This document shows, piece after piece, positions 29,802 through 59,398 of a stretch of DNA of 64,000 nucleotides. Below the pieces are notes generated by a model that was given only the letters and a program-made list of their open reading frames with translations, did no database searches and had not been told where the DNA came from. The position numbers and the translations under genes are program-made. Every line of letters starts with the position of its first letter. The first letter of the stretch is position 1. This stretch comes from Candidatus Nanohaloarchaea archaeon (GTDB taxonomy: Archaea; Nanohalarchaeota; Nanosalinia; Nanosalinales; Nanosalinaceae), in NCBI GenBank assembly GCA_014297435.1, contig JACOQA010000002.1, positions 128,001 to 192,000 of the forward strand. The letters run 5' to 3'.

Positions 29802-29954
29802 GTGAGTCACGGCTCAGGAAACCAACATTCAGACCCGGCAAGAAAATGGGAGAAAGCACTCGCCCATATCACAATCGCAATCATCCTCAGCATAGGACGA
29901 GTGACTTATTCAGTTTTCGCCTCAGTCTTCAGGATTCTGACACGGCTAGCCTGA
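29802..29954 (+). CDS. Putative 50-aa small membrane protein (below the ORF-track cutoff)
   Basis: GTG start; MSHGSGNQHSDPARKWEKALAHITIAIILSIGRVTYSVFASVFRILTRLA; TTTTAA box about 30 nt upstream and AAGGAG. Confidence 0.4.
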   Translation: MSHGSGNQHSDPARKWEKALAHITIAIILSIGRVTYSVFASVFRILTRLA

Positions 29955-34026: not shown

Positions 34027-34071
34027 GGTTAAGCTGAAAAGCTTCTGTTTTAAACCAAAGATTACGGTTCG

Positions 34072-35196
34072 ATGAGTGTGGAAGTAGGAATATACCATCC
34101 TTGGTTGAAAGAGAAAGGCGGAGCCGAAAAAGTAGTTCTAGAACTAGCAAAACGATCAACACACGAAATAACAATATACACAAGGTTCTACAACCCGGAA
34201 TCAACATTCAAAGAATTCGGAGATCTGGAAATTAAGGAACTAGGGTTTGGCGGTGACGCAAAAAACTTTATCGACGCAGGTCTCAGATTCGGAATCGGAT
34301 CCATGCTAGGCAAAATACCGACAGAAAAACTCGACGCACTAATAATATCAGAAGCAGGTCTCGGATCACTCACAGCAATCAGAAACAACAACCTACCAAT
34401 AATCTGCTACTGCCACACACCTCTAAGAGCTGCGCACCCCGAATTCACACAACTCTACATCAACGAACAACCTCTACCACTAAAACCCGTCTACAAAATC
34501 GGAACCAAAATATACAGCGTTTTCGAGAAACACGCATGGAAAAAATTCGACAAGGTAATTGCGAACAGCCAAACTACCAAAGAAAGAATAATCGCAAAAC
34601 ACCTAAAACACGAGAAAGACATAGAAGTAGTCCATCCCGGTGCAGATATAGAACAAAACAAGCCTGGAGAGTACGAAAACTACTTCCTGTACCCCTCCCG
34701 TTTCAGAAAGTACAAAAGACAAGAACTAGCTATTGAAGCATTCGAAAAAGCGGATCTCGAAGGCTTCAAACTAATTTTGGCTGGTTCCAACCAAGACCCT
34801 GAATACGTAGAACAACTAAGACAAAAAGCAGGAGAAAACGTAGAAATCAAGACCGATGTGCCGGGAGACGAATGGAGAGAACTTTACAGAAACTGTTACA
34901 GCGTCTTGTTTCTTGCAGAAAACGAAGACTGGGGTATTATCCCGGTCGAGACCGGAAGCTACGGCAAAAGTATCATCTCAGTTAATGAAGGCGGGCCGGC
35001 CGAATCAGTACAACACGGAGAAACAGGATTCCTTGTAGAACCCGAACCGGGCATGATCGCGGAAAAAATGTGTGAGTTGGCGGAAAATCCTGAGAAAAAC
35101 CGGGAAATCGGTAAAAAAGCTCGAAAAGAATCAAAGAAATACAGCTGGCAGAAATTCGCTGAAAAACTAGATAGACAAGTCGAGGATTTGGAATGA
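34072..35196 (+). CDS. Glycosyltransferase family 4
   Basis: GGAEKV, YCHTP, SRFRKYKR, EDWGIIPVE. Confidence 0.92.
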   Translation: MSVEVGIYHPWLKEKGGAEKVVLELAKRSTHEITIYTRFYNPESTFKEFGDLEIKELGFGGDAKNFIDAGLRFGIGSMLGKIPTEKLDALIISEAGLGSLTAIRNNNLPIICYCHTPLRAAHPEFTQLYINEQPLPLKPVYKIGTKIYSVFEKHAWKKFDKVIANSQTTKERIIAKHLKHEKDIEVVHPGADIEQNKPGEYENYFLYPSRFRKYKRQELAIEAFEKADLEGFKLILAGSNQDPEYVEQLRQKAGENVEIKTDVPGDEWRELYRNCYSVLFLAENEDWGIIPVETGSYGKSIISVNEGGPAESVQHGETGFLVEPEPGMIAEKMCELAENPEKNREIGKKARKESKKYSWQKFAEKLDRQVEDLE

Positions 35197-40942: not shown

Positions 40943-41774
40943 ATGTCGCTTTATTCTTTTTACAAGAAATGGGTCCTTCCGAAAATCGAGACTCGCCGTG
41001 GATCAAATTTCATCTGTCGACATCTAAAGAAGTTGTCTCTAGGCAGTCTGGAGTCTGTTCCAGTATCAGAGAGAGAGAGAAGGGATAGGAGACAAAGAAT
41101 GGGATAATCTGATAATATTGGATGCGTGTCGGCACGATCTTTTCGAGGAGGTTGTAGGGGAATCCGATTACCGTTATTCTCTAGGCTCCAATTCTTCTGA
41201 ATTTGTAGAAAAGAATTTTTCTGAAGGAGATTGGTCTGATACTGTTTATGTGACAGCTAATCCACATTTTCACAAGACTCATTTTGAAAGTTTAACAGGA
41301 AAGAAGGCCGAGGAAGTATTCCATGAAGTTTTTCATACCTATGAGACAGACTGGAATAAAGACGAAAGAACTATTATGCCTGAAGATGTAGCTCGCGATG
41401 CTGAAACTGCAGCAAACCTATTTCCTGATAAGAAACTAATTATACATTTTATGCAGCCGCATTATCCCTTTCTCAATTCCGATTTAGAGGAAAGCGGTAT
41501 CAGAATAGTTGATGGAGAGGGCGGAAAAACTATTTGGGAGAGAGCTGAAAGGGGGGAAATAGATAAGAGAGAAGTGCGGGGTGCTTATAAGAGAAATCTC
41601 GAAATCGTAATGGAGTATGTAAAAGACTTGAATTTAGAAGGGACGACTAGGGTTACTGCTGACCATGCTAACTTGTTTGGAGAAGGAGGAATATATGGTC
41701 ATCCGAAGGAGGCTCACGTTAAGCCCCTACTTAGGGTACCATGGTACGATTTAAAGGCCGCTAGGGCCAATTGA
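40943..41774 (+). pseudogene. Alkaline-phosphatase-superfamily (LDACR type) gene frameshifted at an (AG)6 tract
   Basis: N-terminus MSLYSFYKKWVLPK... from ATG 40943 resembles those of the paralogues; the WDNLIILDAC core is in another frame after the tract at 41068-41080. Confidence 0.8.
41068..41080 (+). repeat. (AG)6A microsatellite at the frameshift
   Basis: AGAGAGAGAGAGA. Confidence 0.9.
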
Positions 41775-43056
41775 TGCCTTTTGTGATTCCATCATCTAGT
41801 TTATGTCTAATTTTCCTTCCTTCTATTATCAAAGCTTCATCCATACTCTTTAGGTCCTTTCTGCTTATCTGATTGAATTCTGCCCAGTCTGTCACTATAA
41901 GTGCTGCGTTCGAGTTCTCTATCGCTTTCTGGTAGCTTTCCGTGTACTCGATGTCGGGATGTCTTTCTTTCATGTTCTGGATTGCTTCTGGGTCATAGGC
42001 TTTAACATCAGCTCCTTTCTGTTTTAGTTCGGAGATTATATCGATTGCCGGACTCTGTCTTATATCGTCTGTTCCCGGTTTGAAAGCAAGTCCGAGAATC
42101 GCAACTGTCTTATTTTCAAGGCTGGGATAGTGTTCCTCTAGTAAATCTACGAGCCTGGTTTTCTGTTTCTCATTAACCTCTATAGTGCTCTCCGTTATCT
42201 TTGGGTCAACATTGTTTTTCTCCATGAAGTTGATTAGAGCTCTAACGTCTTTCGGGAAGCAAGATCCGCCGAAACCAGCTCCGGAGTCAAGAAAGCTCCT
42301 CTCTATCCGAGAGTCCATTCCGATTCCGTCTGCAACCTCGTAGACATCAATTCCAAGCTCTTTGCACATGTTTCCGATCTCGTTTATGAAAGATATTTTT
42401 GTTGCGAGTAAAGAGTTCGAGGCATACTTGATAAGCTCTGCAGCCTTTAGAGATGTCCTCATAATTGGAGCTTCGAACCCTTCGTAGACCTTCTCTAAGG
42501 TTTCTCCAGACTTTTCATCTAGCTCGCCAATAACTATTCTATCGGGTTCAAGAAAGTCGTTCAAAGCTGTTCCCTCTCTGAGGAACTCAGGGTTCATACA
42601 GACTCCGAAGTCCTTGCCCACTTTCTTTCCTGAAACTTCTTCGAGTATGGGTATTATCTCTTCCTCGGTGGTTGTCGGTACAACGGTGCTTTTCACGACA
42701 AAGACGTGGTAGCTGTCTTTGTTCTTAATTCCGTGAGCTGCGTCTTTGGTCGCTTGTTTGATGTAGTCGAGATTGATGTCCCCATCATCTTTCATGGGGG
42801 TACCAACAGCTAAAAATGTTATATCAGAGTCTCTTATTGCTTCTTCTGTATTGGTTGTTGCCCTGAGTTTATCTTCCGAAACCATCTTTTCTAGAAGTTC
42901 GGGCAGATCTTCCTCGTAGATCGGACATTCTCCGCTATTAATCTTATCGACTTTCTCTTGGTCGATGTCGATACAGGTCACATCGTGTCCTTTTGAGGCC
43001 AGCCCTGTTCCCGCGGGCAGACCTACGTAGCCGGTTCCGACGATACTTATATCCAT
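41761..43056 (-). CDS. ugd: UDP-glucose 6-dehydrogenase (AglM-like)
   Basis: GTGYVG, KSTV, NPEFLREG, GFGGSCFPKD, LGLAFKP. Confidence 0.95.
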   Translation of the reverse strand: MDISIVGTGYVGLPAGTGLASKGHDVTCIDIDQEKVDKINSGECPIYEEDLPELLEKMVSEDKLRATTNTEEAIRDSDITFLAVGTPMKDDGDINLDYIKQATKDAAHGIKNKDSYHVFVVKSTVVPTTTEEEIIPILEEVSGKKVGKDFGVCMNPEFLREGTALNDFLEPDRIVIGELDEKSGETLEKVYEGFEAPIMRTSLKAAELIKYASNSLLATKISFINEIGNMCKELGIDVYEVADGIGMDSRIERSFLDSGAGFGGSCFPKDVRALINFMEKNNVDPKITESTIEVNEKQKTRLVDLLEEHYPSLENKTVAILGLAFKPGTDDIRQSPAIDIISELKQKGADVKAYDPEAIQNMKERHPDIEYTESYQKAIENSNAALIVTDWAEFNQISRKDLKSMDEALIIEGRKIRHKLDDGITKGINWP

Positions 43057-43109
43057 AAACATCAAATTTGAGAACAGCCATTTAAGCCTCTCGACCGAAA
43101 GTATTCTTA

Positions 43110-43835
43110 ATGAAAGGACTCATACCTGCGGCAGGTAAAGGTACACGGATGAAGCCTTTCACAAAGGCTTACCCTAAAGAGCTTCTGCCTGTTGGTGAAA
43201 AAGCCGTTATTGAACATGCAATAGAAGACCTCAAAAACGCAGGTATAGAGGAAATAGTAATTGTAGTAGGATGGAAGCAACACGCAATCCTTGACTACCT
43301 AGGTTCGGGTAAAGAAATAGGAGTTCAGTTAACTTATGTTGTTCAAGACGATAGAAATGGTCTTGCTGGTGCGGTCAAAGCGGGAGAGCATGTTATCGGT
43401 GATGAAGAATTTGCAGTTATTCTTGGAGACAATTATGTCGACAACAAGAAGTCCATGAAGGATATAGTCAATTTTCATGAAGAAAAAAACATGGATGCCA
43501 CTATAGGAACTTTCAAGCCCGACGATATAACCTCTTATGGGGTTATAGATCCTGGAGAGAACAATATTGTTAAGAGGATGGTTGAGAAACCTTCTAAAGG
43601 GGAGGCGCCTTCAAACATCGCGATCTCCGGAATGTATGTCTTCAAACCCGAAATCTTCAATACCATAGAAAAAATAGGGAGGGGCAAGGGCGACGAATAC
43701 CAGTTAACTGATGCGATTGACAAAATGAGGCAAAACGGTTCAAAAGTTGGCTACAGGAATATAAAGGGATCAAGGATTGATGTGGGGACGCCTGAAAGAC
43801 TGAGAGAGGCAAACAGAGAGTTTGATTTGAGGTAA
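43110..43835 (+). CDS. Sugar-1-phosphate nucleotidyltransferase (AglF/RfbA-like)
   Basis: PAAGKGTRM...PKELLP, LGDN, EKP, YQLTDA. Confidence 0.93.
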   Translation: MKGLIPAAGKGTRMKPFTKAYPKELLPVGEKAVIEHAIEDLKNAGIEEIVIVVGWKQHAILDYLGSGKEIGVQLTYVVQDDRNGLAGAVKAGEHVIGDEEFAVILGDNYVDNKKSMKDIVNFHEEKNMDATIGTFKPDDITSYGVIDPGENNIVKRMVEKPSKGEAPSNIAISGMYVFKPEIFNTIEKIGRGKGDEYQLTDAIDKMRQNGSKVGYRNIKGSRIDVGTPERLREANREFDLR

Positions 43836-43840
43836 TCGAT

Positions 43841-44647
43841 ATGAGCGCGGCTTTCGAGATATACAAGTACTATAGATATAAGTTCTATTCAAAGTACAGT
43901 CATCTAAAGGGCGCCACTTTCCTCCACCGTCAACTCAAAACTCTAGCTCAGAAAGGAATCGAGAAGTTTGATGGCAAAAGCGAATCCATTTTCGAAAAGA
44001 ATGACTGGGATAATTTGATTATTCTTGATGCTTGTCGATACGATCTATACAGGGAGGTAAACGGAGAAGTGGAAAAACGCATAACTCTTGGAAGCGACTC
44101 CCGTCAGTTTATAGAGGAAACATTCTCGGAGGGTGATTTCTCTGATGTGGTTTATGTCACCGCGAACCCGCATTTCTCCGCCTCAAACTTCAGAGAAAAC
44201 ATCGGAAGAGATGTCGAGGAAACATTCCACGAGGTATACCATACGTACGAGACGGACTGGAGTGAGGAAAACGGAACGGTGATGCCAGAGGCAGTGGTCA
44301 GGGATGCCAAGAACGCCAAAAAGCTTTTCCCGGATAAGAAACTGATAATTCACTTTATGCAGCCTCATCATCCGTTTGTTAACTTCGATATCGGAGATGA
44401 TACGGTTGAAAGCAATCCGTGGAGTCTTGCGGAGAGAGGGAAGCTTTCTGAGGAAAAGGTCTGGAAAATGTACCGAGACAATCTCGAGTTCGTGATGCCT
44501 TTCGCCGAACAGCTCTCGGAAGAACTTGGTGGAACTACCGTAATAACAGCAGATCACGGAAACCTGTGTGGTGAAAACGGGCTCTACCACCATCCTTACG
44601 GATCCGATGCTAAAGGCTTGAGGGAAGTTCCGTGGGATAAGAGGTGA
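43841..44647 (+). CDS. Alkaline phosphatase/sulfatase superfamily protein (LDACR type)
   Basis: LDACRYD, GSDS, HFMQPHHP, TADHG, YHHP. Confidence 0.82.
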   Translation: MSAAFEIYKYYRYKFYSKYSHLKGATFLHRQLKTLAQKGIEKFDGKSESIFEKNDWDNLIILDACRYDLYREVNGEVEKRITLGSDSRQFIEETFSEGDFSDVVYVTANPHFSASNFRENIGRDVEETFHEVYHTYETDWSEENGTVMPEAVVRDAKNAKKLFPDKKLIIHFMQPHHPFVNFDIGDDTVESNPWSLAERGKLSEEKVWKMYRDNLEFVMPFAEQLSEELGGTTVITADHGNLCGENGLYHHPYGSDAKGLREVPWDKR

Positions 44648-45480
44648 AAAGATTGATTTGGACTAAATTGCATCGGATTTATTCTCATTATATTTTTCCC
44701 AAGGTAAAACACATCAGAGGAACCCATAGACTGATGACCGCAATTCTAAGTAGAGCCTGTGATACTTTGCCTAAAGCGGATGAAGAAGCAATTAAGATCG
44801 AGGAAATAAATTATGATAATTTGATAATTCTTGATGCTTGTCGATACGATCTTTATCAACAAGTAACTGGTAAAAAAGATTATAGAATCTCTACGGGAAG
44901 TAGCTCAAGAAACGTTGTTAAGAGGAATTTTTCAGAAGGCGACTGGTCCGATACCGTGATGATAACAGCAAATCCACACTTTAGTGATCGGCTCTTTGAA
45001 GAAATTACAGGAAGAGAATCGGATCAGGTATTTCACACGGTATTCAAATTATTCAACACGGAATGGAGTGAGGAGGAAGGAACTGTTCTTCCTAGGGATA
45101 TGGTAGATACTGCCCTAACTGCAGAAAAATTGTTCCCTGGTAAGAAAAAGATAATATGGTTTATGCAACCTCACTGCCCATTTATTCCTCTAGAATCTGA
45201 GGAATTAGATAATATTGAGGGTTTAGATTCGGAGGAAAATATCTGGGATAAGGCTGAGCGAGGGAAAATCGGAGATGAAATGCTTTGGACAGCTTACCTA
45301 AATAATCTGAAGTACGTGATGAAGGAGGTAGACGAACTAATAGATAAATTGGAAGGCAGAAGCGTAATCACTTCTGATCACGGCAACCTTGTAGGGGAAA
45401 GTGGTCTTTATGGACATCCTTTAGGTCAGGAAACAAAGGTTCTTAGAAAAGTACCTTTTGATGTCAGAGATCAGAATTAA
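44644..45480 (+). CDS. Alkaline phosphatase/sulfatase superfamily protein (LDACR type)
   Basis: LDACRYD, GSSS, FMQPHCP, TSDHG, YGHP. Confidence 0.82.
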   Translation: MKRLIWTKLHRIYSHYIFPKVKHIRGTHRLMTAILSRACDTLPKADEEAIKIEEINYDNLIILDACRYDLYQQVTGKKDYRISTGSSSRNVVKRNFSEGDWSDTVMITANPHFSDRLFEEITGRESDQVFHTVFKLFNTEWSEEEGTVLPRDMVDTALTAEKLFPGKKKIIWFMQPHCPFIPLESEELDNIEGLDSEENIWDKAERGKIGDEMLWTAYLNNLKYVMKEVDELIDKLEGRSVITSDHGNLVGESGLYGHPLGQETKVLRKVPFDVRDQN

Positions 45481-45505
45481 AACCATCTGAGGTGATTGGA
45501 TTACT

Positions 45506-46924
45506 ATGACAACCTATATTATAGGAATGGATGGGATGGATAAGCAAATTGTAGAAGAGAATATAGAGGAGTTTCCTAATCTGTCCGAATTAACTATAAC
45601 GGGTCTTGAATCGGTAACGCCGCCGATCACAGTCCCTGCATGGGCATGCTCGTTTTCAGGTTTGAATCCGGATAAGCTTGAGACTTTCGACTTCCAGATG
45701 GTTGACGTCAAGACCTATGAGTTCAGCCCGGCGAACCACGAGTTCTTGCAGAAGAAAGGCTTCTGGAACTACTGGAACGACTCCTCAACCATCTTCTCGA
45801 TACCAGGAACCGAGACACCGAAACTTGATGGTTATTCGCTTGGAGGGTTCTTCGACCTCGAGAACCTGGAAACGCATCCTGAAAGCCTGAGAGACGAAAT
45901 CGAAGAGGAGATCGGTGAGATAGAGATCACAAACATGTTCGACCTCAACAGTGAGAAAGAGAGAAGAGAGGCAGCCTATCACAACTTCGAGGTAAGGAAG
46001 AAAATATTCGATCTGTTATTAGAGAAAAACTCTGATGTTTACTTCCCGGTATTCAGACTTCCGGACACCATGATGCACCACACCGATAGTGAGAAGCACA
46101 TGGTCGAATCCTACAGAGAGGTAGATTCATTCGTAGGTGAGCTCAGAGACAAGATGAGCGAAGACGATAACCTGCTAATAGTGTCGGATCACGGCGCTGT
46201 AAAAGCTAAGAGAAGGTTCTTCATCAACACATGGCTCAAGCAAAATGGTTTTGCAAAGCAGAAGGAGGGAGAGGAGAATTCCTTCCTAGATGATTTGGCG
46301 ATGAAGCTGGGCGATATAGGTCAGAGACTTGGATTCAGAGATCTACTCGTAAAGCTAAATAATTTGGCGCAGGAGAAAGCCGGCAAGAACTTCGCACCTA
46401 GAAAGACCAAAGCTCTTGACTCGATGGCCTGGCAGGAGACGGAAGCGTTCTCTTACATGACAGGGGTCTGCGCATACGCAGGAATCTGGATAAACGATGA
46501 ACGTTTCTCGAAGGGAGTAGTTGAAAATACTCAGGAAAAGAAGCAGGAGATCGCATCAGAGCTGGAGAAAAGGAAGGAGGTAAACAAGGTTCGCTTTAGG
46601 GAAGAGGTATACGAGGAAGATATAGAGAAGTTCCCTGACCTTATAGTAGAGTTCTATGAAGACACGAAAGCAGCGTTGGGCTTTCATCCTGAGGTTACAG
46701 CAAGCGTCTCCAGCTATATGCACAGAAAAGAAGGCGTTTTAATGGCGGAAGGATCTAATATAGTCGATTCAGATGAGGAAGCTGAGCTTATCGATTTGGC
46801 GCCGACCTTGCTTCACCTACACGATTACCCTGTTCCGAATCACATGGACGGAGAAGTTCTAGAAATGGTCAAGAAGGGAGATGTGGAGAAAGAGGTGTCG
46901 GAGGTGGCAGGTCTCGATATATGA
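45506..46924 (+). CDS. Type I phosphodiesterase/nucleotide pyrophosphatase-like (AP superfamily)
   Basis: GMDG, PPITVPAW..SGLNP, DTMMH, VSDHG, IDLAPTLL..MDGEVL. Confidence 0.85.
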   Translation: MTTYIIGMDGMDKQIVEENIEEFPNLSELTITGLESVTPPITVPAWACSFSGLNPDKLETFDFQMVDVKTYEFSPANHEFLQKKGFWNYWNDSSTIFSIPGTETPKLDGYSLGGFFDLENLETHPESLRDEIEEEIGEIEITNMFDLNSEKERREAAYHNFEVRKKIFDLLLEKNSDVYFPVFRLPDTMMHHTDSEKHMVESYREVDSFVGELRDKMSEDDNLLIVSDHGAVKAKRRFFINTWLKQNGFAKQKEGEENSFLDDLAMKLGDIGQRLGFRDLLVKLNNLAQEKAGKNFAPRKTKALDSMAWQETEAFSYMTGVCAYAGIWINDERFSKGVVENTQEKKQEIASELEKRKEVNKVRFREEVYEEDIEKFPDLIVEFYEDTKAALGFHPEVTASVSSYMHRKEGVLMAEGSNIVDSDEEAELIDLAPTLLHLHDYPVPNHMDGEVLEMVKKGDVEKEVSEVAGLDI

Positions 46925-47703
46925 TTGCCAAGATCTACAAGTTCTATCACTCGGAGTTCTATGAAAGGTTCAACCATCTAAAGGGAGCGCATTTCCTGAA
47001 CCGGAAGCTTAGCAGTCTGATAGACTTGGAGCTCGAAACAGTAGATGAAGAACCGACTCATATACGTGAGAGGGAGTGGAAGAACCTGATAATACTCGAT
47101 GCACTAAGGTATGATATTTACTCGGAGAAGTTCTCGGAATCTGACAGCATCACAAGCGTAGGGAGCCATTCTCGTGAGTTTATTAAGAACACCTTCTCCG
47201 AAGGAGACTGGTCCGACACTGTGCTCGTGACGGCGAACCCTCATCACTCCCCTGAATGGTTCGAGAACGCTACTGACAGAAAAATCGAAGATACCTTCCA
47301 TGCGATCTACAGGACTTATGAAACGGACTGGTCAAATGAAGGATCAGTCGGAGCTGATAACCTCGTGAGAGATGTGAAGAGCGCTAGGAAACTTTTTCCG
47401 GATAAGAAGATTATTGTTCACTTCATGCAACCTCACGCACCATTAGTCGGTTCCGATAAAGATACAGGTCATATAAGGTCTATGGGTGAGGGATCGAGAG
47501 AAGAGGCCGTTAAAGCTTACAGAGAAAACCTCGACTATGTTTTGGAGTATGTGAACGAACTAATGGAGTTCTTCGATGGTAGAACAGTAGTAACAGGAGA
47601 TCACGGTGAGTTGCTTGGAGAATGCGATTTTTACTTTAGACATTTCTACGGTCTAAACGCGAAACCTGTAAAGCAAGTACCTTGGCATTTAATTAACGAA
47701 TAA
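46921..47703 (+). CDS. Alkaline phosphatase/sulfatase superfamily protein (LDACR type)
   Basis: LDALRYD, GSHS, HFMQPHAP, TGDHG. Confidence 0.82.
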   Translation: MIAKIYKFYHSEFYERFNHLKGAHFLNRKLSSLIDLELETVDEEPTHIREREWKNLIILDALRYDIYSEKFSESDSITSVGSHSREFIKNTFSEGDWSDTVLVTANPHHSPEWFENATDRKIEDTFHAIYRTYETDWSNEGSVGADNLVRDVKSARKLFPDKKIIVHFMQPHAPLVGSDKDTGHIRSMGEGSREEAVKAYRENLDYVLEYVNELMEFFDGRTVVTGDHGELLGECDFYFRHFYGLNAKPVKQVPWHLINE

Positions 47704-47770: not shown

Positions 47771-47983
47771 ATGGTAAAGATCGAAGTTGATGACGATATT
47801 TACAGCGTCTTAGAAGCCAGAGCTGCTGAAAAAGATTATGCGGAAACTGAAGAGTATATTGAATATCTTCTGAAGCAGATTGTTGATAAGATCAAAAGAG
47901 AGAAGCAGGAGGACGAAGGTTATTCAGAAGAGGAGGAAGAAAAGGTCAAAGAGAGACTAAAGGATCTGGGCTATTTGGACTGA
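47771..47983 (+). CDS. Small CopG/RHH-like protein with RLxxLGY tail
   Basis: MVKIEVDDDIY...; ends EEKVKERLKDLGYLD. Confidence 0.78.
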   Translation: MVKIEVDDDIYSVLEARAAEKDYAETEEYIEYLLKQIVDKIKREKQEDEGYSEEEEEKVKERLKDLGYLD

Positions 47984-49527
47984 CGAATTAACAAGTCGGC
48001 AATTTTGTCCGCTTCCTCTCCTCTATTCATCCTTCTACCTATTCCAACTATAATATCTCTATCGTCTTCTTTTATGCCGCCCAGCAACACTAGGCAGGCT
48101 ACAAACATAACTCCAAAGATTATTCCTCCAGGAATCAAAGCCCAGACAGGGACAGTGTTCCAGAGAAGATTAAGTCCTAAGTAAACTAGGATTAGGCCAG
48201 GAACTGCAGCTACTACAGGTTTCCATGTGTCTCTGGAGAAGGGGTGGGTTCCTTCAAAGTAGTAGACTTCCAGAAGCAGTAGGGTGCTGATGAAGATTGT
48301 TGAACCTGCTGTGGCTAGTGCGGCGCCAATCATTCCCAAGCCCAGACCGAAGTCGGGTATTAGTACAAAGTTTAAAGCCATGTTCAGAGCTAACTGGGCT
48401 ATGCTGTTCCTGAAAAGTATATGGTTTTTCTCTATTGATTGCAGCACCTGGTCTAAGTGTCCGACTGCTGAGGAGTAGAGCTGTCCTACTGCTAAAATAA
48501 CGAGTACGTTCGAAGCCACGGTGTACTGGCTTCCGAAAAGTATGTGGAGTACTTGTTCTGAGAAGAGGAACATTAGCATGAAGGCGGGGAAGGCCAGGTA
48601 AAAAGTCCAACGTGTCAGGGTTTTCAGCATTTTTTTGAGTCCTTTGCCTTCTTTTTCGGCTTCGGACATGGAAGGCAGCGCTAAACTGTTGAAGGCTTTG
48701 TAAGGTATCATGATTAGTGCGGCGGTCGGCAGTGCGGCGTTGTAAAACCCTACTGTTGCATCGTCCATGAAGTAGCCTAGGAAAGCTGTGTCAGCCCAGC
48801 CCAGGATTGTACCTATCATTCCTGAAAGCACTAAAGGATACGAGTAACGGATCATTTTTCTTCTCTGGAAGTTTACTGATTCTTTTGATCTAATGATTGG
48901 TCCTACTTTGAACTCCATGAAGTAGAATCCTAGTAGGGAGGATAGTACGACCCCTAGCAGCCATCCTCCGGCGGCTCCCGCCACACCCCATCCAAGTACG
49001 ACAAAGCCGATTGTAAAGATTAGTTGTACGATGTTCTGGAAGAACTGGTTTGTGATAACCCGGTACTTCAACTGTTTGTAGGCTACGGTTGTTGAGATGC
49101 TTACACGGGAGAAGACTGAGAACGGCGGTACGAAAGCAAGTATCTTGATTACTGGAGCCACAGCAGGGCTTTTGAAGAAGTTTTGAGCTAGGAAATCTGC
49201 GGAGATAAACATCAGAACTCCCATGAATATTGAAACCGGTAAAGTAATGTTTAGTGCGGAGTAGACAGCGCCTTTGACTGAGGAGAGATCGTTGTCCATC
49301 CTATACTCGGGAACGTATTTTTTGATGGCTTGGTTGATTGCGAAGAGAGAGATTGTGGTTGCAATACCAAGTATCATCAGTCCTTGTGATAGCTGGCCGT
49401 AGGCGTCCGGACCAACCATTCTTGCGACTATGGCTCTGTAGAAGTATGTGAATATTTTCGAGGCGAACATTCCTACTCCTGTCAACACTGCGCCTTTTGC
49501 CAGCGTGTTCAGCCTCTGGTTGGCCAT
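47971..49527 (-). CDS. Oligosaccharide flippase (Wzx/MOP family)
   Basis: About 14 TM helices; YGQLS, DTAFLGYF...VGFYNAA, LNFVLIP..GMIGAALAT. Confidence 0.9.
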   Translation of the reverse strand: MANQRLNTLAKGAVLTGVGMFASKIFTYFYRAIVARMVGPDAYGQLSQGLMILGIATTISLFAINQAIKKYVPEYRMDNDLSSVKGAVYSALNITLPVSIFMGVLMFISADFLAQNFFKSPAVAPVIKILAFVPPFSVFSRVSISTTVAYKQLKYRVITNQFFQNIVQLIFTIGFVVLGWGVAGAAGGWLLGVVLSSLLGFYFMEFKVGPIIRSKESVNFQRRKMIRYSYPLVLSGMIGTILGWADTAFLGYFMDDATVGFYNAALPTAALIMIPYKAFNSLALPSMSEAEKEGKGLKKMLKTLTRWTFYLAFPAFMLMFLFSEQVLHILFGSQYTVASNVLVILAVGQLYSSAVGHLDQVLQSIEKNHILFRNSIAQLALNMALNFVLIPDFGLGLGMIGAALATAGSTIFISTLLLLEVYYFEGTHPFSRDTWKPVVAAVPGLILVYLGLNLLWNTVPVWALIPGGIIFGVMFVACLVLLGGIKEDDRDIIVGIGRRMNRGEEADKIADLLIRQSK

Positions 49528-49579
49528 ACACAGAAGGTTTGACTCCACCTTTATTACCGTTTGAATCCAACTCTAAACT

Positions 49580-50446
49580 ATGTCTGAGTTCGACAAAATG
49601 CTTGTAGTAGGGCTTGATGGGCTTGATTACAGGAAAATCCAGAAATACGACTGCAGCAACCTGATGCTTCAAACATTCGGAAAACTGGATACCCAAGGAC
49701 TGGCCTTGAAAACCCCGATGCTCTGGGCCTCAATAATAACCGGCAAAAGCCCTGGAGAACACGGAATCGATGACATGCTCGCGTTTAAAGGTGAAAAAGC
49801 AAGGAAGCTAGACGATTTAATGGACAGGTTCTTCGGTTTCTTCGGCAGATCAGGTCTACACCTAAGAAAGACCGTAAACTACTATCTTTACGACGACAGC
49901 ATCTCGGTTCCCGACAAAAACTACATGGAAACCGACTCTATCTTTGAAAAAGTCGCTGACTCGAAAGCTTTCGACATTCCAGGCTATTCCGAGTATCCTT
50001 ACATTTCCGGCAAGATGAATGTTGCTAAACTATCCCGTAAAAACCCTCCTGTCTCACGTAAACGCGTGAAGAGGGATATTGACGCCGAACATCTTTACAG
50101 GAAAGAGCAGCTGTTCGAAAATATCGGAGAACATACTCTTTTGATGCAGCATTTCCACTACAGCGACTGGCATCAACACATGTATCTCTCCGAGGAAAAA
50201 GATAGGCAATTATACAAAGAAATGGACGAGCTGGCTGGAAAGATACTTGAGAAAGCCGATGATGATACCTTAGTGGTTTTCTGTTCCGACCATGGTTTGG
50301 AAGATGGCGGGCATAGAGATGAAGCGTTTTTCTCGGTAAACACGGATATAGACGAGAACCAGAGTATTACAACACTTCTTGAGAGCTGTCTAGAACATGT
50401 TGACTACAAAAACAAGGAGGAAACCGTTGAATCAATCGAGGTCTGA
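49580..50446 (+). CDS. Alkaline phosphatase superfamily protein
   Basis: GLDG, TPMLWASIITG, DWHQH, SDHG, GGH. Confidence 0.82.
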   Translation: MSEFDKMLVVGLDGLDYRKIQKYDCSNLMLQTFGKLDTQGLALKTPMLWASIITGKSPGEHGIDDMLAFKGEKARKLDDLMDRFFGFFGRSGLHLRKTVNYYLYDDSISVPDKNYMETDSIFEKVADSKAFDIPGYSEYPYISGKMNVAKLSRKNPPVSRKRVKRDIDAEHLYRKEQLFENIGEHTLLMQHFHYSDWHQHMYLSEEKDRQLYKEMDELAGKILEKADDDTLVVFCSDHGLEDGGHRDEAFFSVNTDIDENQSITTLLESCLEHVDYKNKEETVESIEV

Positions 50447-50448
50447 AG

Positions 50449-51120
50449 ATGGATCTGGTCTTTCTAGGGATGAATCCGGCAGGAGAAAAAACACTGGAGT
50501 GGTTGAAAGAACGTGAAGACGTAGAATTACTGGTCTCGATAAAAGAAAAGAAAAATTTAGGTCTAATAGAAGAAGAGCGGCCGGAACTAGTTATTTCCTC
50601 GGGGTTCGAACACAAAGTACCAAAAGAGATACTTGAGGTTCCGGAAAAAGGGGTTGTCAACTTACATCCTTCGTTCCTACCTTTCAATAGAGGTGCGCAT
50701 CCTTATGTGTGGCCTTTAATCGATGGAACGCCGGCAGGGGTTTCTATACACTACATGAATGAAGGTATTGATGAGGGTCCTGTTATTTCGAGGAGGAAGG
50801 TTGAGAAAAAAGAGACGGATACTGCTAAAGATCTCTACGACCGTTTACAGCATGAAATGTTCCAATTATTCAAGGATTCCTGGAGGGATATAAAGAAAGG
50901 TGTTGAGGGTAGTGAACAGGATCTAGCTAAAGGAACTGTTCATAAAAGCAGTGATTTGGATGATTTAGCGAGTATTAATCCGAACGAAGAGTTTAAGGCT
51001 AAAGAGTTGGTTGATCTTTTACGGGCTTTAAGTTTTCCGCCTCACGGCATGGCTTCTATCGATGGAAAGTTTCTCGAACTGAATGTACGTGAAAATGTAG
51101 GAGACGAACCCAAGCACTAA
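50449..51120 (+). CDS. Formyltransferase (probable sugar N-formyltransferase)
   Basis: VNLHPSFLPFNRGAHP, GVSIH, IDEGP. Confidence 0.85.
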   Translation: MDLVFLGMNPAGEKTLEWLKEREDVELLVSIKEKKNLGLIEEERPELVISSGFEHKVPKEILEVPEKGVVNLHPSFLPFNRGAHPYVWPLIDGTPAGVSIHYMNEGIDEGPVISRRKVEKKETDTAKDLYDRLQHEMFQLFKDSWRDIKKGVEGSEQDLAKGTVHKSSDLDDLASINPNEEFKAKELVDLLRALSFPPHGMASIDGKFLELNVRENVGDEPKH

Positions 51121-51152
51121 CTTAATAAACATGCATAAGTTATGCATCTTCT

Positions 51153-51347
51153 ATGCCGAGGAAAACAATTTCTCTGCCTGAAGACCTCGCAGACTTCGTG
51201 GATGATAATCATATCAACCTCTCAAGATTCGTACAGGACAAACTAAGAGAGCTAGCAGAATCCGAAAACACCGAAGAAGAACTCTCCGAAGAACAAGCCA
51301 AGGAAATCGCGAAAAAACTCGAAAAACTCGGCTATCTAGACAGGTAA
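51153..51347 (+). CDS. Small RHH protein with KLxxLGY tail
   Basis: MPRKTISLPEDL...NLSRFV; ends KEIAKKLEKLGYLDR. Confidence 0.8.
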   Translation: MPRKTISLPEDLADFVDDNHINLSRFVQDKLRELAESENTEEELSEEQAKEIAKKLEKLGYLDR

Positions 51348-51357
51348 AAACTATATT

Positions 51358-52122
51358 ATGAAAGTATTCGGAATTGACGCCGCGACATGGGACATGATAA
51401 AACCACATAGAGACGAACTACCCAACTTCGACCGTTTAATGGAAGAATGTGACTACAAAACCGTTACGGTCGAGGAAACACCTAAATCCGCGCCGCTCTG
51501 GACATCAATCTTCACAGGTTTAAGACAGAGCGAACACGGACACAAAGACTTCGTGGTGGACGAAGAACTCCAGAAAAGAGAGGATATCGACGGAACATTC
51601 GTATGGGAAGAACTGGAAAACGTTGACTCCAAAATCCTGCAGGTTCCTGCGGTCATTCCGCCAATCAACTACAACACAAGTTACGAACCGGAAGGTTTCG
51701 GAGTCTCAAGTGACCTAGAAGAACTAGAAGCAGACAGAAAGAAACTGATGCAAAAATCGAAGGAAGTACTCGAAGAAGATCCAGAATTTTTCGCTGTAGT
51801 TTTCATGCAGCTCGACAGGGTAAGCCATTTCTACTGGAACGACAAAGAACTGATCCTCGAATGGTACAAGAAAATGGACGAAGTACTCGGCGAACTGCTT
51901 GAGTACTACGACTTTGACTCGGATGAACCGTTGATCGTTCTTTCAGACCACGGGTTCGCCGAGCACGGCGAAGGAAGAGTACAGACTTTACCTGAGGAAA
52001 CACCTCACGGAACCTTGGAAGGCGATCACCATGAAGATGCGGTTTTAATCACGAAAAACGTTGACTTTGAAATCGATCAACCTGAGGACGTCGGAAAGGC
52101 GATCCTCAATCACTTCAACTAA
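51358..52122 (+). CDS. Alkaline phosphatase superfamily protein
   Basis: GIDAA, SAPLWTSIFTG, DRVSH, SDHG, GDHH. Confidence 0.82.
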   Translation: MKVFGIDAATWDMIKPHRDELPNFDRLMEECDYKTVTVEETPKSAPLWTSIFTGLRQSEHGHKDFVVDEELQKREDIDGTFVWEELENVDSKILQVPAVIPPINYNTSYEPEGFGVSSDLEELEADRKKLMQKSKEVLEEDPEFFAVVFMQLDRVSHFYWNDKELILEWYKKMDEVLGELLEYYDFDSDEPLIVLSDHGFAEHGEGRVQTLPEETPHGTLEGDHHEDAVLITKNVDFEIDQPEDVGKAILNHFN

Positions 52123-52145
52123 TCTTTCAAAGAGGTATCACCACT

Positions 52146-53063
52146 ATGACACTTGAAGCACCTGTAACAAGAGAAGAAATTGAAAACGCGCCTACAAAAG
52201 CTAAAATAAGGGCTGGAGAAGAAGTTGTCAAGAAAGCCCTAGAAAAATACGACACCGAAAACGTAGTAATCGGTTTCACAGGAGGAAAAGACTCCACATT
52301 AACCGCATGGCTCGTCAAACGTGTCTGCGAGGAACACGGCTTTGATAAGCCACGTTTCATGTTCGTAGATCACGGCCAGCACTTCGACGAACTTGAAGAC
52401 TACGTCAACCGGTTAGCGGACGACTGGGGGTTCGACGTAATGGTGGCGAAGAACGAAGACTTGATCGAAAAAGCAGAAAACCCTGGAGACAAGGTTCCTG
52501 TCGCAGAACTTAACGAAAGAAACCAGAGGGAAGCAGAACGGGTCGGAGACTACGAAGAAGTGCCTTGGTTGATGGATACCGAAGCCGGAAACCATCTTCT
52601 CAAGACCGTTCCTATGAACGAACTGCTCGAGAACCATAACATAAAGGCCGTGATTAACGGAGTTCGATGGGACGAACACGAATCTAGAGGCGACGAGGAC
52701 TTCTACAGTCCTAGAAACGATCCGGACCACATCAGAGTCCACCCGATCCTTCAACTGGATGAGAGGGATGTCTGGGATGTTTCCTGGTTCCACATGGTTC
52801 CCGATGTAACAGGCATCGACATAGAAGAGTATCCGGAGACCGAAGAGGACTTACCGGAAGGACTGTCGAAAGACAGCGTTCCAATAAGTCCGAAGTACTG
52901 GGCAGGGTTCAGAAGCCTTGGATCAGAAGTTTCGACAGAGAAAAGCGAGGAAGAACCGGCTTGGTTACAGGATGTCGAGAACACGAAGGAAAGAGCTGGC
53001 AGAGCCCAGAACAAGGACGATAAAGAGATCATGGATAAGCTTAGAGAATTGGGTTACATGTAG
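52146..53063 (+). CDS. PAPS-reductase family protein, CysD (sulfate adenylyltransferase subunit 2)-like
   Basis: PP-loop GFTGGKDST, GVRWDE..R, RVHPI, FRSLG, ERAGR...MDKLRELGYM; no C-terminal ECG(L/I)H of PAPS reductases. Confidence 0.8.
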   Translation: MTLEAPVTREEIENAPTKAKIRAGEEVVKKALEKYDTENVVIGFTGGKDSTLTAWLVKRVCEEHGFDKPRFMFVDHGQHFDELEDYVNRLADDWGFDVMVAKNEDLIEKAENPGDKVPVAELNERNQREAERVGDYEEVPWLMDTEAGNHLLKTVPMNELLENHNIKAVINGVRWDEHESRGDEDFYSPRNDPDHIRVHPILQLDERDVWDVSWFHMVPDVTGIDIEEYPETEEDLPEGLSKDSVPISPKYWAGFRSLGSEVSTEKSEEEPAWLQDVENTKERAGRAQNKDDKEIMDKLRELGYM

Positions 53064-55017: not shown

Positions 55018-55758
55018 ATGGCTAAGAAACGTGTCTCTTTAACCCTTGAGGAAGAGATGGTGGAGAAAATAGATGCCGAGGCTGAGGAAAGAGAGTTGAA
55101 CAGGTCGCAGACGGTTGAAGAGATAGCGGAGAAGTACTTTGGTGAAAGAGGTATAGATACAGCGGTTGTTTTCTGCGGAGATCCTGAAGCCAAAAGCCTC
55201 GAACTACATAACGGCAAGCCAGTACTATCACATATACTTGACCATCTTGCCGAGGAAGGTATCAACAGAGCTATACTTCTTTCAGGGAAGAATAAAGAGA
55301 TTGAGGAAAGCTTCGGGTCAGAATACAGTGGTTTAGCGCTTGAATATATTGAGGATGAGCCAGAGGGCACGGCTGCAGCCTTGAAGAAAGTTGAAGGTAA
55401 GGTCGATGGCGAGTTCGCTGCTTTGAACGGTCATGTTATCGCGGATGTAGATATGGATGAAATGTTAAGGTTTCACAGAGAGGAGAGCTCTGTTGCAACG
55501 ATCGCATTGACCTCTGTAGAGGATCCTTCGAGCTACGGTGTTGCAAGATTAAAAGGCAGGAAGGTTCTTGGTTTTGTTGAAAAACCAGAAGATGGCGAGG
55601 AACCTTCGCGTTTGATAAACGCCGGCACCTATATTTTCGGATCGGAGATCTTCTCTATGCTGGAAGAGGAAAGTATAGAGACTGTTTTCAAGAACTTAGC
55701 GGATCAAAAACAGCTTTCAGGTTATATTTACGGTGGAAAGTGGCGTAACTGGGATTAG
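55018..55758 (+). CDS. RHH domain fused to a degenerate NDP-sugar nucleotidyltransferase domain
   Basis: MAKKRVSLTL...NRSQTVE; then GTAAAL, YGV, FVEKP, INAGTYIF; the GxGTR motif is absent. Confidence 0.8.
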   Translation: MAKKRVSLTLEEEMVEKIDAEAEERELNRSQTVEEIAEKYFGERGIDTAVVFCGDPEAKSLELHNGKPVLSHILDHLAEEGINRAILLSGKNKEIEESFGSEYSGLALEYIEDEPEGTAAALKKVEGKVDGEFAALNGHVIADVDMDEMLRFHREESSVATIALTSVEDPSSYGVARLKGRKVLGFVEKPEDGEEPSRLINAGTYIFGSEIFSMLEEESIETVFKNLADQKQLSGYIYGGKWRNWD

Positions 55759-58304: not shown

Positions 58305-59398
58305 AGGAAGAGAACAAACCCTATAATTATTACAACCACTTCAACGGAGGTAAGGATCAGTGTTATCTGTTTCTCCGTAAATCCTCTTTTCATTAATGGA
58401 ATTGTAAGGCTGTAATTCTTCGGATGTTGGGGTTCTAGTTTGCCGTTTTCTTTCAGAGTTCCCCAGGAATGGGAGTTAAACCCACTTCTCGCACTAAGCA
58501 AGAACTCAGCGTACCAAGGCGCGAATATGAAAGCTCCGAACTTCTCGATATTTCCCACGACCATGGACGCGAAGAGAACTGCACCAGCCAAGTAAGTTAA
58601 AGAGTCTCCGGGAAGTATCGAAGCCGGATAAAAATTGTACCAAAGGAACGCGAGCAGACATGACGAAGCAGATAAAGCTATCAAAGCTGCTTCCATTCGA
58701 CCGTTAGACAAAGCGAAAACACCTAGCCCGAGACTAGCTACCAGACTCATTGCAGCCGACAAACCGTTCATACCCGCCAGCATGTTCACAACGTTCGAAA
58801 CGAACAGAAGTCCTAAAGGTAGGAGAACTAGTGGGTAGAGCAGACCCCAGTTCACTACACCAATTAAAGGAAGGCTCATCTCCCATGAACCAGCACCTAC
58901 CGCAATCAAAGGAAGTGCGGCCGGTAAGACGAAAAGCATCTTGGGTATCTGCGAGAGCCCGGTTCTATGGATCATCGAATCATCCTTATCATTAGAAAAA
59001 CGGAGAATAAAGCGTTCGATAAAGTGTGTTTTCTCGGTCTCAAGCTCTATCTCAACCTCCTCCTCAACATGTTCGGTTATCAGCTTCTGCAGATCGATAT
59101 GAATATCATCTATCAAGCCAATTAATGCGATAATAGTTACTGAGTTCAGAGCTGCGAGTACAAGCGCCAGGTTGATACTTCTAGAACCGAAAAGCTGGTT
59201 CAAACCGATAAAGCTTGTGACGGCTACAATAAAACCGAAGAGAACAACCAATCCGCCTGAAGTCGGTATCTTCGGTCTATTATTCTTCTGCTGGTCTATT
59301 CCATAAATCCCTGAAGACATCAAGTACTTTTTCGCCGCAGGAACTCCAACAAAAACTGTAAAGAAACCGAGAAGGGAAGAAAGGAGTAGGAACCTCAT
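58301..59398 (-). CDS. aglH: UDP-GlcNAc:polyprenol-P GlcNAc-1-P transferase (AglH/Alg7-like)
   Basis: IPTSGG, IGLIDD, NVVNMLAGMNGL, NFYPASILPGDS. Confidence 0.85.
   Translation of the reverse strand: MRFLLLSSLLGFFTVFVGVPAAKKYLMSSGIYGIDQQKNNRPKIPTSGGLVVLFGFIVAVTSFIGLNQLFGSRSINLALVLAALNSVTIIALIGLIDDIHIDLQKLITEHVEEEVEIELETEKTHFIERFILRFSNDKDDSMIHRTGLSQIPKMLFVLPAALPLIAVGAGSWEMSLPLIGVVNWGLLYPLVLLPLGLLFVSNVVNMLAGMNGLSAAMSLVASLGLGVFALSNGRMEAALIALSASSCLLAFLWYNFYPASILPGDSLTYLAGAVLFASMVVGNIEKFGAFIFAPWYAEFLLSARSGFNSHSWGTLKENGKLEPQHPKNYSLTIPLMKRGFTEKQITLILTSVEVVVIIIGFVLFL

Follow-up and report, generated by a model that had tools for sequence, protein, structure and literature searches.

The 64,000-nucleotide window analysed here, positions 128,001 to 192,000 of contig JACOQA010000002.1 from a Candidatus Nanohaloarchaea archaeon, encodes three otherwise dissimilar proteins, all within 5.3 kb of a glycosylation locus, that end in the same acidic stretch followed by L-x-x-L-G-Y, hereafter the LGY tail. 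Two are small ribbon-helix-helix (RHH) proteins, RHHA and RHHB, and the third, PAPSr, is a CysD-like enzyme. We favour, at roughly even odds (a probability of about 0.5), a reading in which the window holds an N-glycan sulfation locus, RHHB would be an autoregulator within it, and the tail would act as a docking helix linking sulfation enzymes and regulators. The elements on which this reading turns, including one tail-less enzyme of the alkaline phosphatase (AP) superfamily, are as follows.

47771..47983, + strand: RHHA, open reading frame (ORF) for a 70-aa RHH protein with an acidic linker and LGY tail (...EEKVKERLKDLGYLD); 66 homologues
47924..47980, + strand: RHHA tail module, residues 52-70, SEEEEEKVKERLKDLGYLD; most conserved part of the family
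51122..51129, + strand: TATA-like box TTAATAAA, about 24-31 nt upstream of the RHHB ATG; putative promoter element
51131..51147, + strand: candidate RHHB operator, ATGCATAAGTTATGCAT, a 17-bp perfect palindrome that follows the TATA box and precedes the start codon
51153..51347, + strand: RHHB, 64-aa RHH regulator with LGY tail (...KEIAKKLEKLGYLDR), first gene of the RHHB-APm6-PAPSr operon; 281 homologues
51282..51344, + strand: RHHB tail module, residues 44-64, LSEEQAKEIAKKLEKLGYLDR; invariant positions in 28 sequences
51358..52122, + strand: APm6, 254-aa NPP-type AP-superfamily enzyme, tail-less, 10 nt downstream of RHHB; PF01663, E 3.6e-24
52146..53063, + strand: PAPSr, 305-aa CysD-like PP-loop enzyme of the PAPS_reduct family with an LGYM tail (...KEIMDKLRELGYM); PF01507, E 9e-23
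53010..53060, + strand: PAPSr LGY tail, residues 289-305, NKDDKEIMDKLRELGYM; conserved in 10 nanohaloarchaeal orthologues

The pattern L[KRED].LGY has three matches among the window's 713 six-frame stop-to-stop ORFs of at least 40 residues, each of them the C-terminus of RHHA, RHHB or PAPSr, against about 0.004 such C-termini per ~60 genes expected by chance on a rough estimate from amino-acid frequencies. A hidden Markov model (HMM) of the tail, 23 positions long, was run on 2754 ORFs from the window and from 19 related nanohaloarchaeal loci (designated L001 onwards), which had been seeded with RHHB and are not independent samples because synteny is common to them. Its matches scored 14.4-46.9 bits and were all C-terminal, located on flexible acidic extensions, the next score being 4.7 bits with nothing between. 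When the RHHA and RHHB families were compared with hhalign, only the 23 tail columns aligned (93.5% probability, E 2.2e-7), and L63, L66, G67 and Y68 are invariant in a 73-row alignment spanning six protein classes. An earlier note on this DNA had described the ending shared by three dissimilar proteins and its absence from the seven AP-type enzymes of the locus; both observations hold, with three of the seven being clear PF01663 members and the rest assigned by weak matches or homology.

These results bear directly on a first alternative, namely that RHHA and RHHB are ordinary CopG-type regulators whose tails merely resemble those of the enzymes, as a helix-capping motif in an acidic proteome with no common function. 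Halophile proteins are rich in acidic stretches, and those encoded in the window (~44% G+C) are acidic; a helix in ribosomal protein L7/L12 is similar to the tail's first part; and weak matches to unrelated domains occur among 140 members of the RHHA-like family (CheR_N in 18, PG_binding_2 in 10). Against this, the three occurrences in 713 ORFs all fall in one 5-kb stretch, the HMM scores leave a wide gap (14.4 vs. 4.7 bits) with every match C-terminal, and the motif marks RHH, AP-family, CysD-like and adenosine 5'-phosphosulfate (APS) kinase proteins together with three short ORFs, while on plasmids it marks the same enzyme classes and a 319-aa protein. We thus regard a chance likeness, already disfavoured on these counts, as very improbable.

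The tail consensus, S-[acidic run]-[VI]-x-x-[RK]-L-x-x-L-G-Y-[LMIV], can be read as one helix, capped by Ser at its N-terminal end and by Gly at its C-terminal end and hydrophobic on one face. The tail divides into an acidic linker, a short amphipathic helix ([DE][DE][EK][VI]x x[RK]L x x L) and, as its cap, G-Y; it is a portable module of about 20 residues. One to three variable residues follow the Tyr, with 11 further residues in one PAPSr orthologue, and two tails stand in tandem within P0208, a 107-aa protein of the wide RHH-LGY family described below. Since the length after the Tyr varies and tandem tails exist, a fixed free carboxylate is unlikely to be the recognised feature. The longer PAPSr orthologue (L012:2058-3011) runs on past ...LGYM with the hydrophobic residues AVLAALAAFLA, so the motif is not always terminal, and another wide-family protein, P0187 (185 aa), combines two RHH-LGY units with an extra RHH domain, the module being reused within single proteins. 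HbYX, the proteasome-type terminal motif, was considered as an identity for the tail and rejected: in two of the three window proteins the Tyr is not the second-last residue, and the residues after it vary.

The same variation weighs on a second alternative, in which the tail would be a tag for regulated proteolysis (a C-terminal degron) placing regulators and enzymes under one protease. The C-terminal position of a motif common to proteins expected to be co-regulated would suit such a tag, and RHH antitoxin-like proteins are classic protease substrates. However, because the distance from the Tyr to the end ranges over 1-3 residues, reaches 11 in L012, and one copy is internal in a tandem protein, a strictly terminal tag fits poorly; nothing here points to a protease, and we consider a degron hardly probable at all. 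PDB sequence searches with the RHHB profile and with a tail-only profile gave nothing significant covering the LGY end, the best matches (E 0.0032 and 0.031, respectively) being to designed repeat proteins, YciO and L7/L12, so no solved structure displays the tail's binding place. A literature search for the LGY motif returned no relevant paper, as judged by title.

PAPSr suggests where the tail may have come from. Its best NCBIfam matches are CysD models (NF003587, 76.8 bits; TIGR02039, 48.9 bits), the GGKDS sequence at residues 46-50 is invariant in 11 orthologues, and its AlphaFold2 (AF2) core is confidently modelled as a PP-loop fold that matches structures of TtuA, FAD synthase, CysH and CysD (E 1.5e-7 to 3e-6). 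PAPSr also aligns end to end with a canonical CysD from Rhizobium (E 4e-17), where cysD is followed by cysN. The two C-termini correspond in this alignment (...ERQSRLIDLDEAGAMEKKKREGYF against ...ERAGRAQNKDDKEIMDKLRELGYM), with ...AMEKKKREGYF of Rhizobium CysD facing ...IMDKLRELGYM of PAPSr, and this correspondence argues for the tail being an elaborated CysD C-terminus. The relation to CysD endings that the earlier note had stated is thereby substantiated, down to the ...REGYF terminus of a canonical enzyme. The CysD chain of 1ZUN (1ZUN_A) could be aligned up to ...KKRQG (323 of its 325 residues), although only 204 of the 325 residues of this chain are present in the structure library, so its terminus may be unresolved there. 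Where PMC5770160 and PMC4373884 treat CysD, its C-terminus is not mentioned. On these sequence relationships PAPSr is presumed to be a sulfate adenylyltransferase. The tail was found on every CysD-like homologue seen, comprising 10 nanohaloarchaeal proteins, 5 haloarchaeal ones and 1 from Desulfolutivibrio. In the AF2 model, built from a shallow alignment of 11 orthologues, residues 270-305 have a predicted local distance difference test (pLDDT) score below 50, which suggests that the PAPSr tail is not docked in cis and would be free to bind in trans.

The earlier note had put forward a third possibility, that of a covalent carrier by analogy with the C-terminal Tyr of DltX: the tail's Tyr would be sulfated or phosphorylated, AP-fold enzymes would take the group from it, and the tail would serve as a swinging arm or a carrier in trans. 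In every class the Tyr is invariant, as is the Gly before it, and the tail sits on flexible linkers of enzymes that make (CysD-like, APS kinase) or potentially use (AP-fold) activated sulfate. Sulfatase-fold enzymes accept aryl sulfates as substrates, and CysH works with a C-terminal Cys carried on a mobile arm. Yet nothing in the analysis points to a modification of the Tyr, canonical CysD has the same ...GYF end and we know of no covalent Tyr intermediate for it, many members of the wide RHH-LGY family come from apparently non-halophilic sources, and the hydrophobic face (V/I, L, L) is conserved like the Tyr, which suits docking better than an acceptor site. A carrier role is, in our estimate, most unlikely.

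The regulatory part of the favoured reading is carried by RHHB, whose homologues are named Arc/MetJ- or CopG-type regulators by their sources. The best 120 of the 281 are 77-100% identical and all but one (119/120) are tailed, and in 28 sequences the tail residues A49, E51, I52, K55, L56, E57, L59, G60 and Y61 are invariant, as is the RHH part, while the linker varies. RHHB also weakly matches the Pfam model of the RHH antitoxin CcdA (E 6.7e-4), at 20.4 bits and thus under the 22.4 cut-off. The TATA-like box lies about 24-31 nt from the ATG, so the transcript would be leaderless, and a similar A/T box stands at the same place in related loci. The 17-bp palindrome next to it is present as a single copy in the window (0 in 100 shuffles), and in 14 of the 19 loci a copy with no more than two mismatches immediately precedes RHHB. 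Elsewhere in these loci only one extra copy was found, in L004, where the exact palindrome, together with a TATA box of its own, is found 72 nt before a displaced CysD-like gene. The displacement itself is due to an insertion (L004:12477-19141) that splits APm6 from the CysD-like gene and contains genes for an ATPase/DUF234 protein, an AbiEii toxin-like protein and a TnpB of the IS605 type.

Gene order downstream of RHHB is similarly stable. APm6 follows in 10 of the 14 loci with at least 1 kb downstream, the CysD-like gene comes after APm6 in 10 of the 10 loci reaching that far, and in L003 RHHB is followed by the CysD-like gene directly. The RHHB-APm6-PAPSr trio is about 83-92% identical in most loci, against 35-70% for neighbouring genes, and APm6 orthologues from 11 loci (71-98% identical) retain D7, S44, T49, D197, H198, H224 and H225 without exception. 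In L015 (2818-4570), RHHB is instead followed by a canonical ATP sulfurylase (PF01747 + PUA_2, E 3.5e-88) and then by a tailed APS kinase (PF01583, E 8.9e-59), which looks like a non-orthologous replacement of the APm6 and CysD-like pair at the sulfate-activation step. From this single locus, together with homology, we infer two interchangeable sulfate-activation routes under one regulator. The palindrome upstream of RHHB in 14/19 loci, its recurrence at the displaced CysD-like gene and the gene order of L015 together indicate that RHHB is most likely the autoregulator of a sulfate-activation operon. The earlier note had proposed that the RHH domains could tie the tail to transcription: for RHHB the conserved operator palindrome supports this strongly, and for RHHA no operator was found.

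The architecture of the RHHB operator also provides an argument for a serious rival to docking. The palindrome is made up of two ATGCAT sub-sites, each itself palindromic, whose centres are separated by 11 bp; by analogy with Arc and Mnt, this spacing would suit two RHH dimers bound to the same DNA face. Mnt is an RHH repressor with a C-terminal oligomerisation helix, and Mnt and Arc operators have paired sub-sites. The LGY tail could accordingly be a Mnt-like self-association helix that joins two RHH dimers into a tetramer on the two sub-sites and makes dimers or tetramers of the enzymes, with any pairing between enzyme and regulator tails being a by-product or a form of feedback. The heptad-like spacing of V/I, L and L suits helix-helix packing, the tail helix of RHHA is modelled with a pLDDT of 71-82, and a very wide family is easier to explain without an external partner, which makes self-association the simpler account of that family. 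Conversely, a helix of about 13 residues is short for a stable bundle, no tail-tail contact appeared in the predictions run, and enzymes of five unrelated folds would need the same device. Weighing both sides, we see self-association as possible, if rather unlikely.

A range of enzymes carries the tail in cis. Within the 19 nanohaloarchaeal loci it is present on six sulfatase-type proteins (PF00884) and on the C-terminal fragment of a seventh, on two small AP-type enzymes and on one APS kinase, as well as on three short ORFs of unknown class in related loci. Altogether, 8 of 58 AP-type ORFs are tailed: half (6/12) of those recognised only by Pfam Sulfatase/Phosphodiest matches, all six belonging to PF00884, 2/11 of the type represented in the window by ORF 43841, and 0/33 of the PF01663 type. 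None of the six cis-tailed PF00884 proteins has the C/S-x-P-x-R formylglycine motif at the nucleophile position; their nucleophile sites contain Thr (e.g., WTFPSH, TTTTPS) and would fit transferases or phosphoryl-type chemistry better than classical sulfatases, and by sequence these proteins are cytoplasmic. On the small AP enzymes of L011 and L013, the tail forms a ~35-aa extension past the common ...VPW end, and within this three-member subclade it is absent from the sister enzyme of L012. A 47-aa ORF ending ...IKEKLSKLGYK (L007:8956-9099), located after an AP-type gene, looks like the 3' remnant of a tailed small AP enzyme similar to that of L013.

Haloarchaeal plasmids, which represent independent lineages, carry the tail on similar enzymes. 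Ten of the 1581 ORFs examined in eight plasmid loci end in the motif, none of them a small RHH protein. All five haloarchaeal CysD-like homologues on plasmids (Halopiger, Halarchaeum, two Natrinema and one Haloarcula) end ...ERAGRAQDKEDLME(R/H)LRDLGYM, and a bacterial homologue from Desulfolutivibrio, near a Sulfotransfer_1/3 gene, ends ...AMAQLRALGYM. In a 7-kb Halopiger cluster, amid GT4 glycosyltransferase genes and a PHO4-family transporter gene, three proteins are tailed: the CysD-like enzyme, a PF00884 protein (...EEIEHRLSALGYKD) and a PF01663 protein (...DVEERLANLGYME). The tail is also borne by a sulfatase-like protein of Halomontanus, which shares 47% identity with its L007 counterpart, and by the 319-aa protein encoded next to it, which has no Pfam match. 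A tailed sulfatase-like gene adjoins a gene for an LPG_synthase_TM-type membrane protein both in a nanohaloarchaeon (L014:16715-18989) and on a Halomontanus plasmid (L020:11911-14268), the two genes forming a conserved pair. A tblastn search of the plasmids with RHHA and with the non-acidic wide-family protein P0287 gave no match, and the tail may have been masked by the low-complexity filter. Longer proteins with the RHHA tail were also sought in a set of 5.8 billion proteins, giving 38 candidates, none of which was scored; in that set a 40-residue region cannot reach significance.

These distributions bear on two further claims of the earlier note. Its statement that AP- and sulfatase-like proteins can carry such a tail in cis is confirmed by the AP-type ORFs of the related loci and by the PF00884 and PF01663 proteins of the Halopiger and Halomontanus plasmids. 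Its central proposal, that small RHH proteins supply the tail in trans to tail-less enzymes, predicts a complementary distribution that was not seen: RHHA occurs alongside cis-tailed AP enzymes in L004, L007, L011 and L014 and without them in other loci, and the eight plasmid loci with tailed enzymes have no small RHH-LGY gene. RHHA as a tail supplier was consequently rejected. PF01663-type enzymes had also been entertained as the tail's receptors, since none of the 33 in the nanohaloarchaeal loci is tailed and both RHH genes adjoin one; this idea was dropped as a rule, as the Halopiger PF01663 protein is tailed in cis.

RHHA itself is the last gene of an AP-enzyme operon and is convergent with a flippase gene. 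A few bases before its start lies a GTGAT-type element, taken to be a Shine-Dalgarno-like site. A PF01663 gene, of the type of the window's APL3 or another, directly precedes RHHA in L001, L004, L005, L006, L009 and L018. RHHA has no match in Pfam or NCBIfam, and the tail is present in 66 of 66 homologues, being the best-conserved part even at 37% overall identity. An AF2 model based on a 140-sequence alignment (mean pLDDT 86.9; 91-97 over residues 1-40) consists of an extended N-terminal segment and helices at residues 8-20, 26-48 and 53-65, the third of which is the tail. RHHA is accordingly predicted to adopt the RHH fold (beta-strand, helix, helix, about 40 residues). In Foldseek the model superposes on the RHH domain of NikR at 1.0 Å over 38 residues and aligns with AtaR at a query-based TM-score (TMq) of 0.64 over 70 columns, and its neighbours include the antitoxins AtaR, ParD, KacA and TacA.

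RHHA belongs to a very large family. An exhaustive HMMER search with a combined alignment returned 1620 cluster representatives at E <= 0.001, including 269 at E <= 1e-10. Among the best 150 of the 1620 clusters, nearly all members are 60-85 aa long, and 143 of the 147 new ones end in the motif, many of them non-acidic. No Pfam or NCBIfam model covers the RHHA-like family, scattered matches among 140 members being to FitA-like RHH (11), RHH_1 (3) and RHH_5 (3). Look-alike clusters in the ESM Atlas are labelled as CopG family and are mostly archaeal, with Methanobacteriota commonest, and some are bacterial, the labels resting on few members. When 20 proteins of the wide family were looked up, two of them and two further cluster members had source names, one of the four names including an organism label ('MAG ... 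[bacterium]'). PIN-domain genes are found near RHH-LGY genes in three loci, convergent in L011 (3490-3930), divergent in L013 (7325-7723) and 288 nt downstream in L018 (2620-3021), with none in the window; this may be coincidence or may hint at kinship with VapBC-type modules.

The genomic setting is given by the following additional features of the window.

41118..47703, + strand: block with four small PglZ-like AP-type enzymes, all tail-less (41118-41774, 43841-44647, 44644-45480 and 46921-47703); weak Pfam matches and homology
41761-43065, - strand: UDP-glucose dehydrogenase within the small-AP block, which also contains a nucleotidyltransferase
45506..46924, + strand: APL3, 472-aa NPP-type AP enzyme, tail-less; PF01663, E 4.2e-25
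47971..49548, - strand: polysaccharide flippase; PF13440 / PF01943
49580..50446, + strand: APm5, 288-aa NPP-type AP enzyme, tail-less; PF01663, E 1.8e-12
59398..62346, - strand: AglB/STT3 oligosaccharyltransferase; PF02516 + PF21436

By its gene content, the ~34-62 kb part of the window is an N-glycosylation locus marked by AglB. It includes six glycosyltransferases (GT1/GT2, Pfam) along with an FkbM methyltransferase, UDP-glucose dehydrogenase, nucleotidyltransferases, epimerases, a formyltransferase and a GT4 phosphotransferase, and the close homologues of the window's genes carry the source names Candidatus Nanohalobium or Nanohaloarchaea. The seven AP-type ORFs (41118, 43841, 44644, 45506, 46921, 49580 and 51358), all without the tail, differ in the strength of their assignment. 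ORFs 45506, 49580 and 51358 reach the PF01663 cut-off; 43841, 44644 and 46921 have sub-threshold PglZ/Sulfatase matches over a C-terminal DHG region (E 6e-4 to 8e-3); and 41118 has no Pfam match and is tied to the small AP-type ORFs by homology. In related loci, an enzyme of the APL3 type is usually encoded immediately before RHHA. No match to the APS kinase, CysN-type or sulfotransferase families was obtained among the window ORFs scanned.

Three other genes of the window deserve mention. A sugar-1-phosphate nucleotidyltransferase gene (55018-55758, + strand) encodes an N-terminal RHH domain (PF01402, E 5.5e-7) joined to PF00483 from profile position 24; this fusion is kept in nine related loci and provides a second RHH tie to the pathway, and no conserved palindrome was seen by eye upstream of it. 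The 1389-aa product of an ORF directly adjoining the glycosylation genes (29929-34098, - strand), with a hydrophobic N-terminus and no Pfam match, is a candidate surface (S-layer-like) glycoprotein. Outside the locus, the large subunit of DNA polymerase D (DP2; 21443-26395, - strand) is interrupted by an intein whose endonuclease domain is of the LAGLIDADG type (residues 959-1419 matched by Pfam Intein_splicing).

Published precedent for AP-family enzymes in this role comes from Halobacterium salinarum, in which Agl30 and Agl31 (VNG1056C/VNG1057C), sulfatase-like AP-superfamily proteins encoded in the aglB cluster, are N-glycan sulfotransferases, as established genetically and by transfer into Haloferax (PMC11980604). 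Given this precedent, the numerous AP-type genes here are plausible transferases, and the locus very probably serves N-glycan assembly and modification including sulfation, with sulfation as the chemistry suggested by homology. We propose that RHHB, probably as two dimers, would bind the 17-bp palindrome overlapping its own leaderless promoter and control sulfate activation, through APm6 and the CysD-like enzyme here and through ATP sulfurylase and APS kinase in one relative. RHHA would be a second RHH protein, co-transcribed with AP-type enzymes. The tail would descend from, or copy, the CysD C-terminus and would have spread onto AP-family enzymes, APS kinase and regulators, where it would be a flexible docking helix for one common partner surface or for other tails. 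Because the same peptide occurs on at least five unrelated folds, one receptor or tail-tail association is to be expected rather than many receptors, and the tail is probably a common docking handle. Such docking could hold sulfate-activating and AP-type transfer enzymes together, and the regulators might read the assembly state through their tails, by analogy with RHH antitoxins, which tune repression with a C-terminal helix.

Several observations weigh against this proposal. The RHHA-like family is far wider than glycan loci, with its 1620 clusters, many non-acidic members and archaeal and bacterial look-alikes, so that a partner dedicated to glycan sulfation could account for the whole family only if its other members were also encoded beside such enzymes. 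L-x-x-L-G-Y is a generic helix-capping signature, so conservation of the tail may be partly structural only; in this respect the weak Pfam matches among the 140 family members (CheR_N and PG_binding_2, as above, and POTRA_TamA_1 in 4) are also pertinent. The PAPSr scores fall under the CysD cut-offs (76.8 vs. 195 bits for NF003587; 48.9 vs. 396.6 for TIGR02039), no CysN-like protein was detected with Pfam in the window ORFs scanned or in the 84 loci ORFs scanned, and the sulfate assignment draws on homology and a single locus, L015. For RHHA, no operator was found and no conserved palindrome was seen by eye upstream, and the Foldseek neighbours listed, though all RHH proteins, are not significant (E >= 0.44). 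The structure predictions run show no contact made by the tail and yield no binding partner. In a complex prediction with two copies of RHHB, PAPSr and APm6, run without controls, APm6 scored 0.29, 0.36 and 0.28 against a mark of 0.32, which counts neither for nor against binding.

A more far-reaching version of the docking reading, which we consider doubtful, would make the LGY helix an address label for a cytoplasmic glycan-sulfation assembly that hands on the unstable APS or 3'-phosphoadenosine 5'-phosphosulfate (PAPS) directly and replaces the drive otherwise given by CysN. The CysD-like enzyme, APS kinase and AP-fold sulfotransferase-like enzymes would all dock to a single surface by this label, and the RHH regulators would join that surface or compete for it, so that transcription of the activation operon would depend on the number of free docking sites, a form of regulation by tail mimicry. 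If so, the 1620-cluster RHH-LGY family would be a general class of regulators that sense enzyme complexes by means of a common peptide. Even in its simpler form, a docking peptide would be a case in which one interaction motif serves both enzymes and the transcription factor that controls them. Independently of mechanism, the tail marks pathway proteins across Nanohaloarchaea, Halobacteria and one bacterial CysD-like homologue and could serve as a sequence tag for such pathways, and its analysis exposes a large family of small RHH proteins outside Pfam and NCBIfam models. Archaeal N-glycans are often sulfated, and it was only in 2025 that the transferases were recognised, as sulfatase-like proteins of the AP family (PMC11980604). 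The activation and delivery of sulfate for these transferases, and the regulation of both, look open, in that the words PAPS and donor are absent from PMC11980604 and no literature search was aimed at this point; searches on nanohaloarchaeal sulfatases and glycan sulfation gave nothing relevant among the titles listed. The locus offers candidates for these steps in a CysD-like enzyme that lacks an accompanying CysN, a dedicated regulator of the RHH type whose operator is defined, and a shared tail.

Set beside known systems, the components compare as follows. Like Agl30 and Agl31, the window's AP-type enzymes, three of them clear AP-superfamily members, are encoded in an aglB-anchored cluster. 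PAPSr shares with CysD, the small subunit of the GTP-dependent CysDN, its PP-loop fold, GGKDS and ...(K/R)xxGY(F/M) end, and differs from it in a tail that has gained L-x-x-L and an acidic run and in its position in a glycan locus under an RHH regulator. RHHB resembles the RHH antitoxins (CcdA, ParD, AtaR/KacA/TacA) in being small, with an N-terminal RHH domain and a flexible C-terminal helix, and its operon resembles theirs in having the regulator gene first and a palindromic operator over its own promoter. Unlike type II antitoxins, however, RHHB is followed by a PF01663 enzyme and a PAPS_reduct enzyme rather than by a toxin, and the C-terminal helix is also borne in cis by pathway enzymes instead of being private to the regulator. 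Mnt/Arc-type repressors likewise combine an RHH domain, a linker and a C-terminal helix with two sub-sites one helical turn apart, whereas the LGY helix is much shorter and present on enzymes as well. In design only, namely an acidic linker with a short C-terminal hydrophobic or aromatic motif, the tail recalls the single-stranded DNA-binding protein (SSB) tail, the ribosomal stalk P1 tail and clamp-binding motifs, which are carried by many unrelated proteins converging on one hub. An RHH autoregulator with a partner-binding tail is therefore a known kind of system; what is new, as far as our searches show, is that regulators and the enzymes of the pathway have a tail in common, that this tail originates in the CysD terminus, and that the RHH-LGY family is so large.

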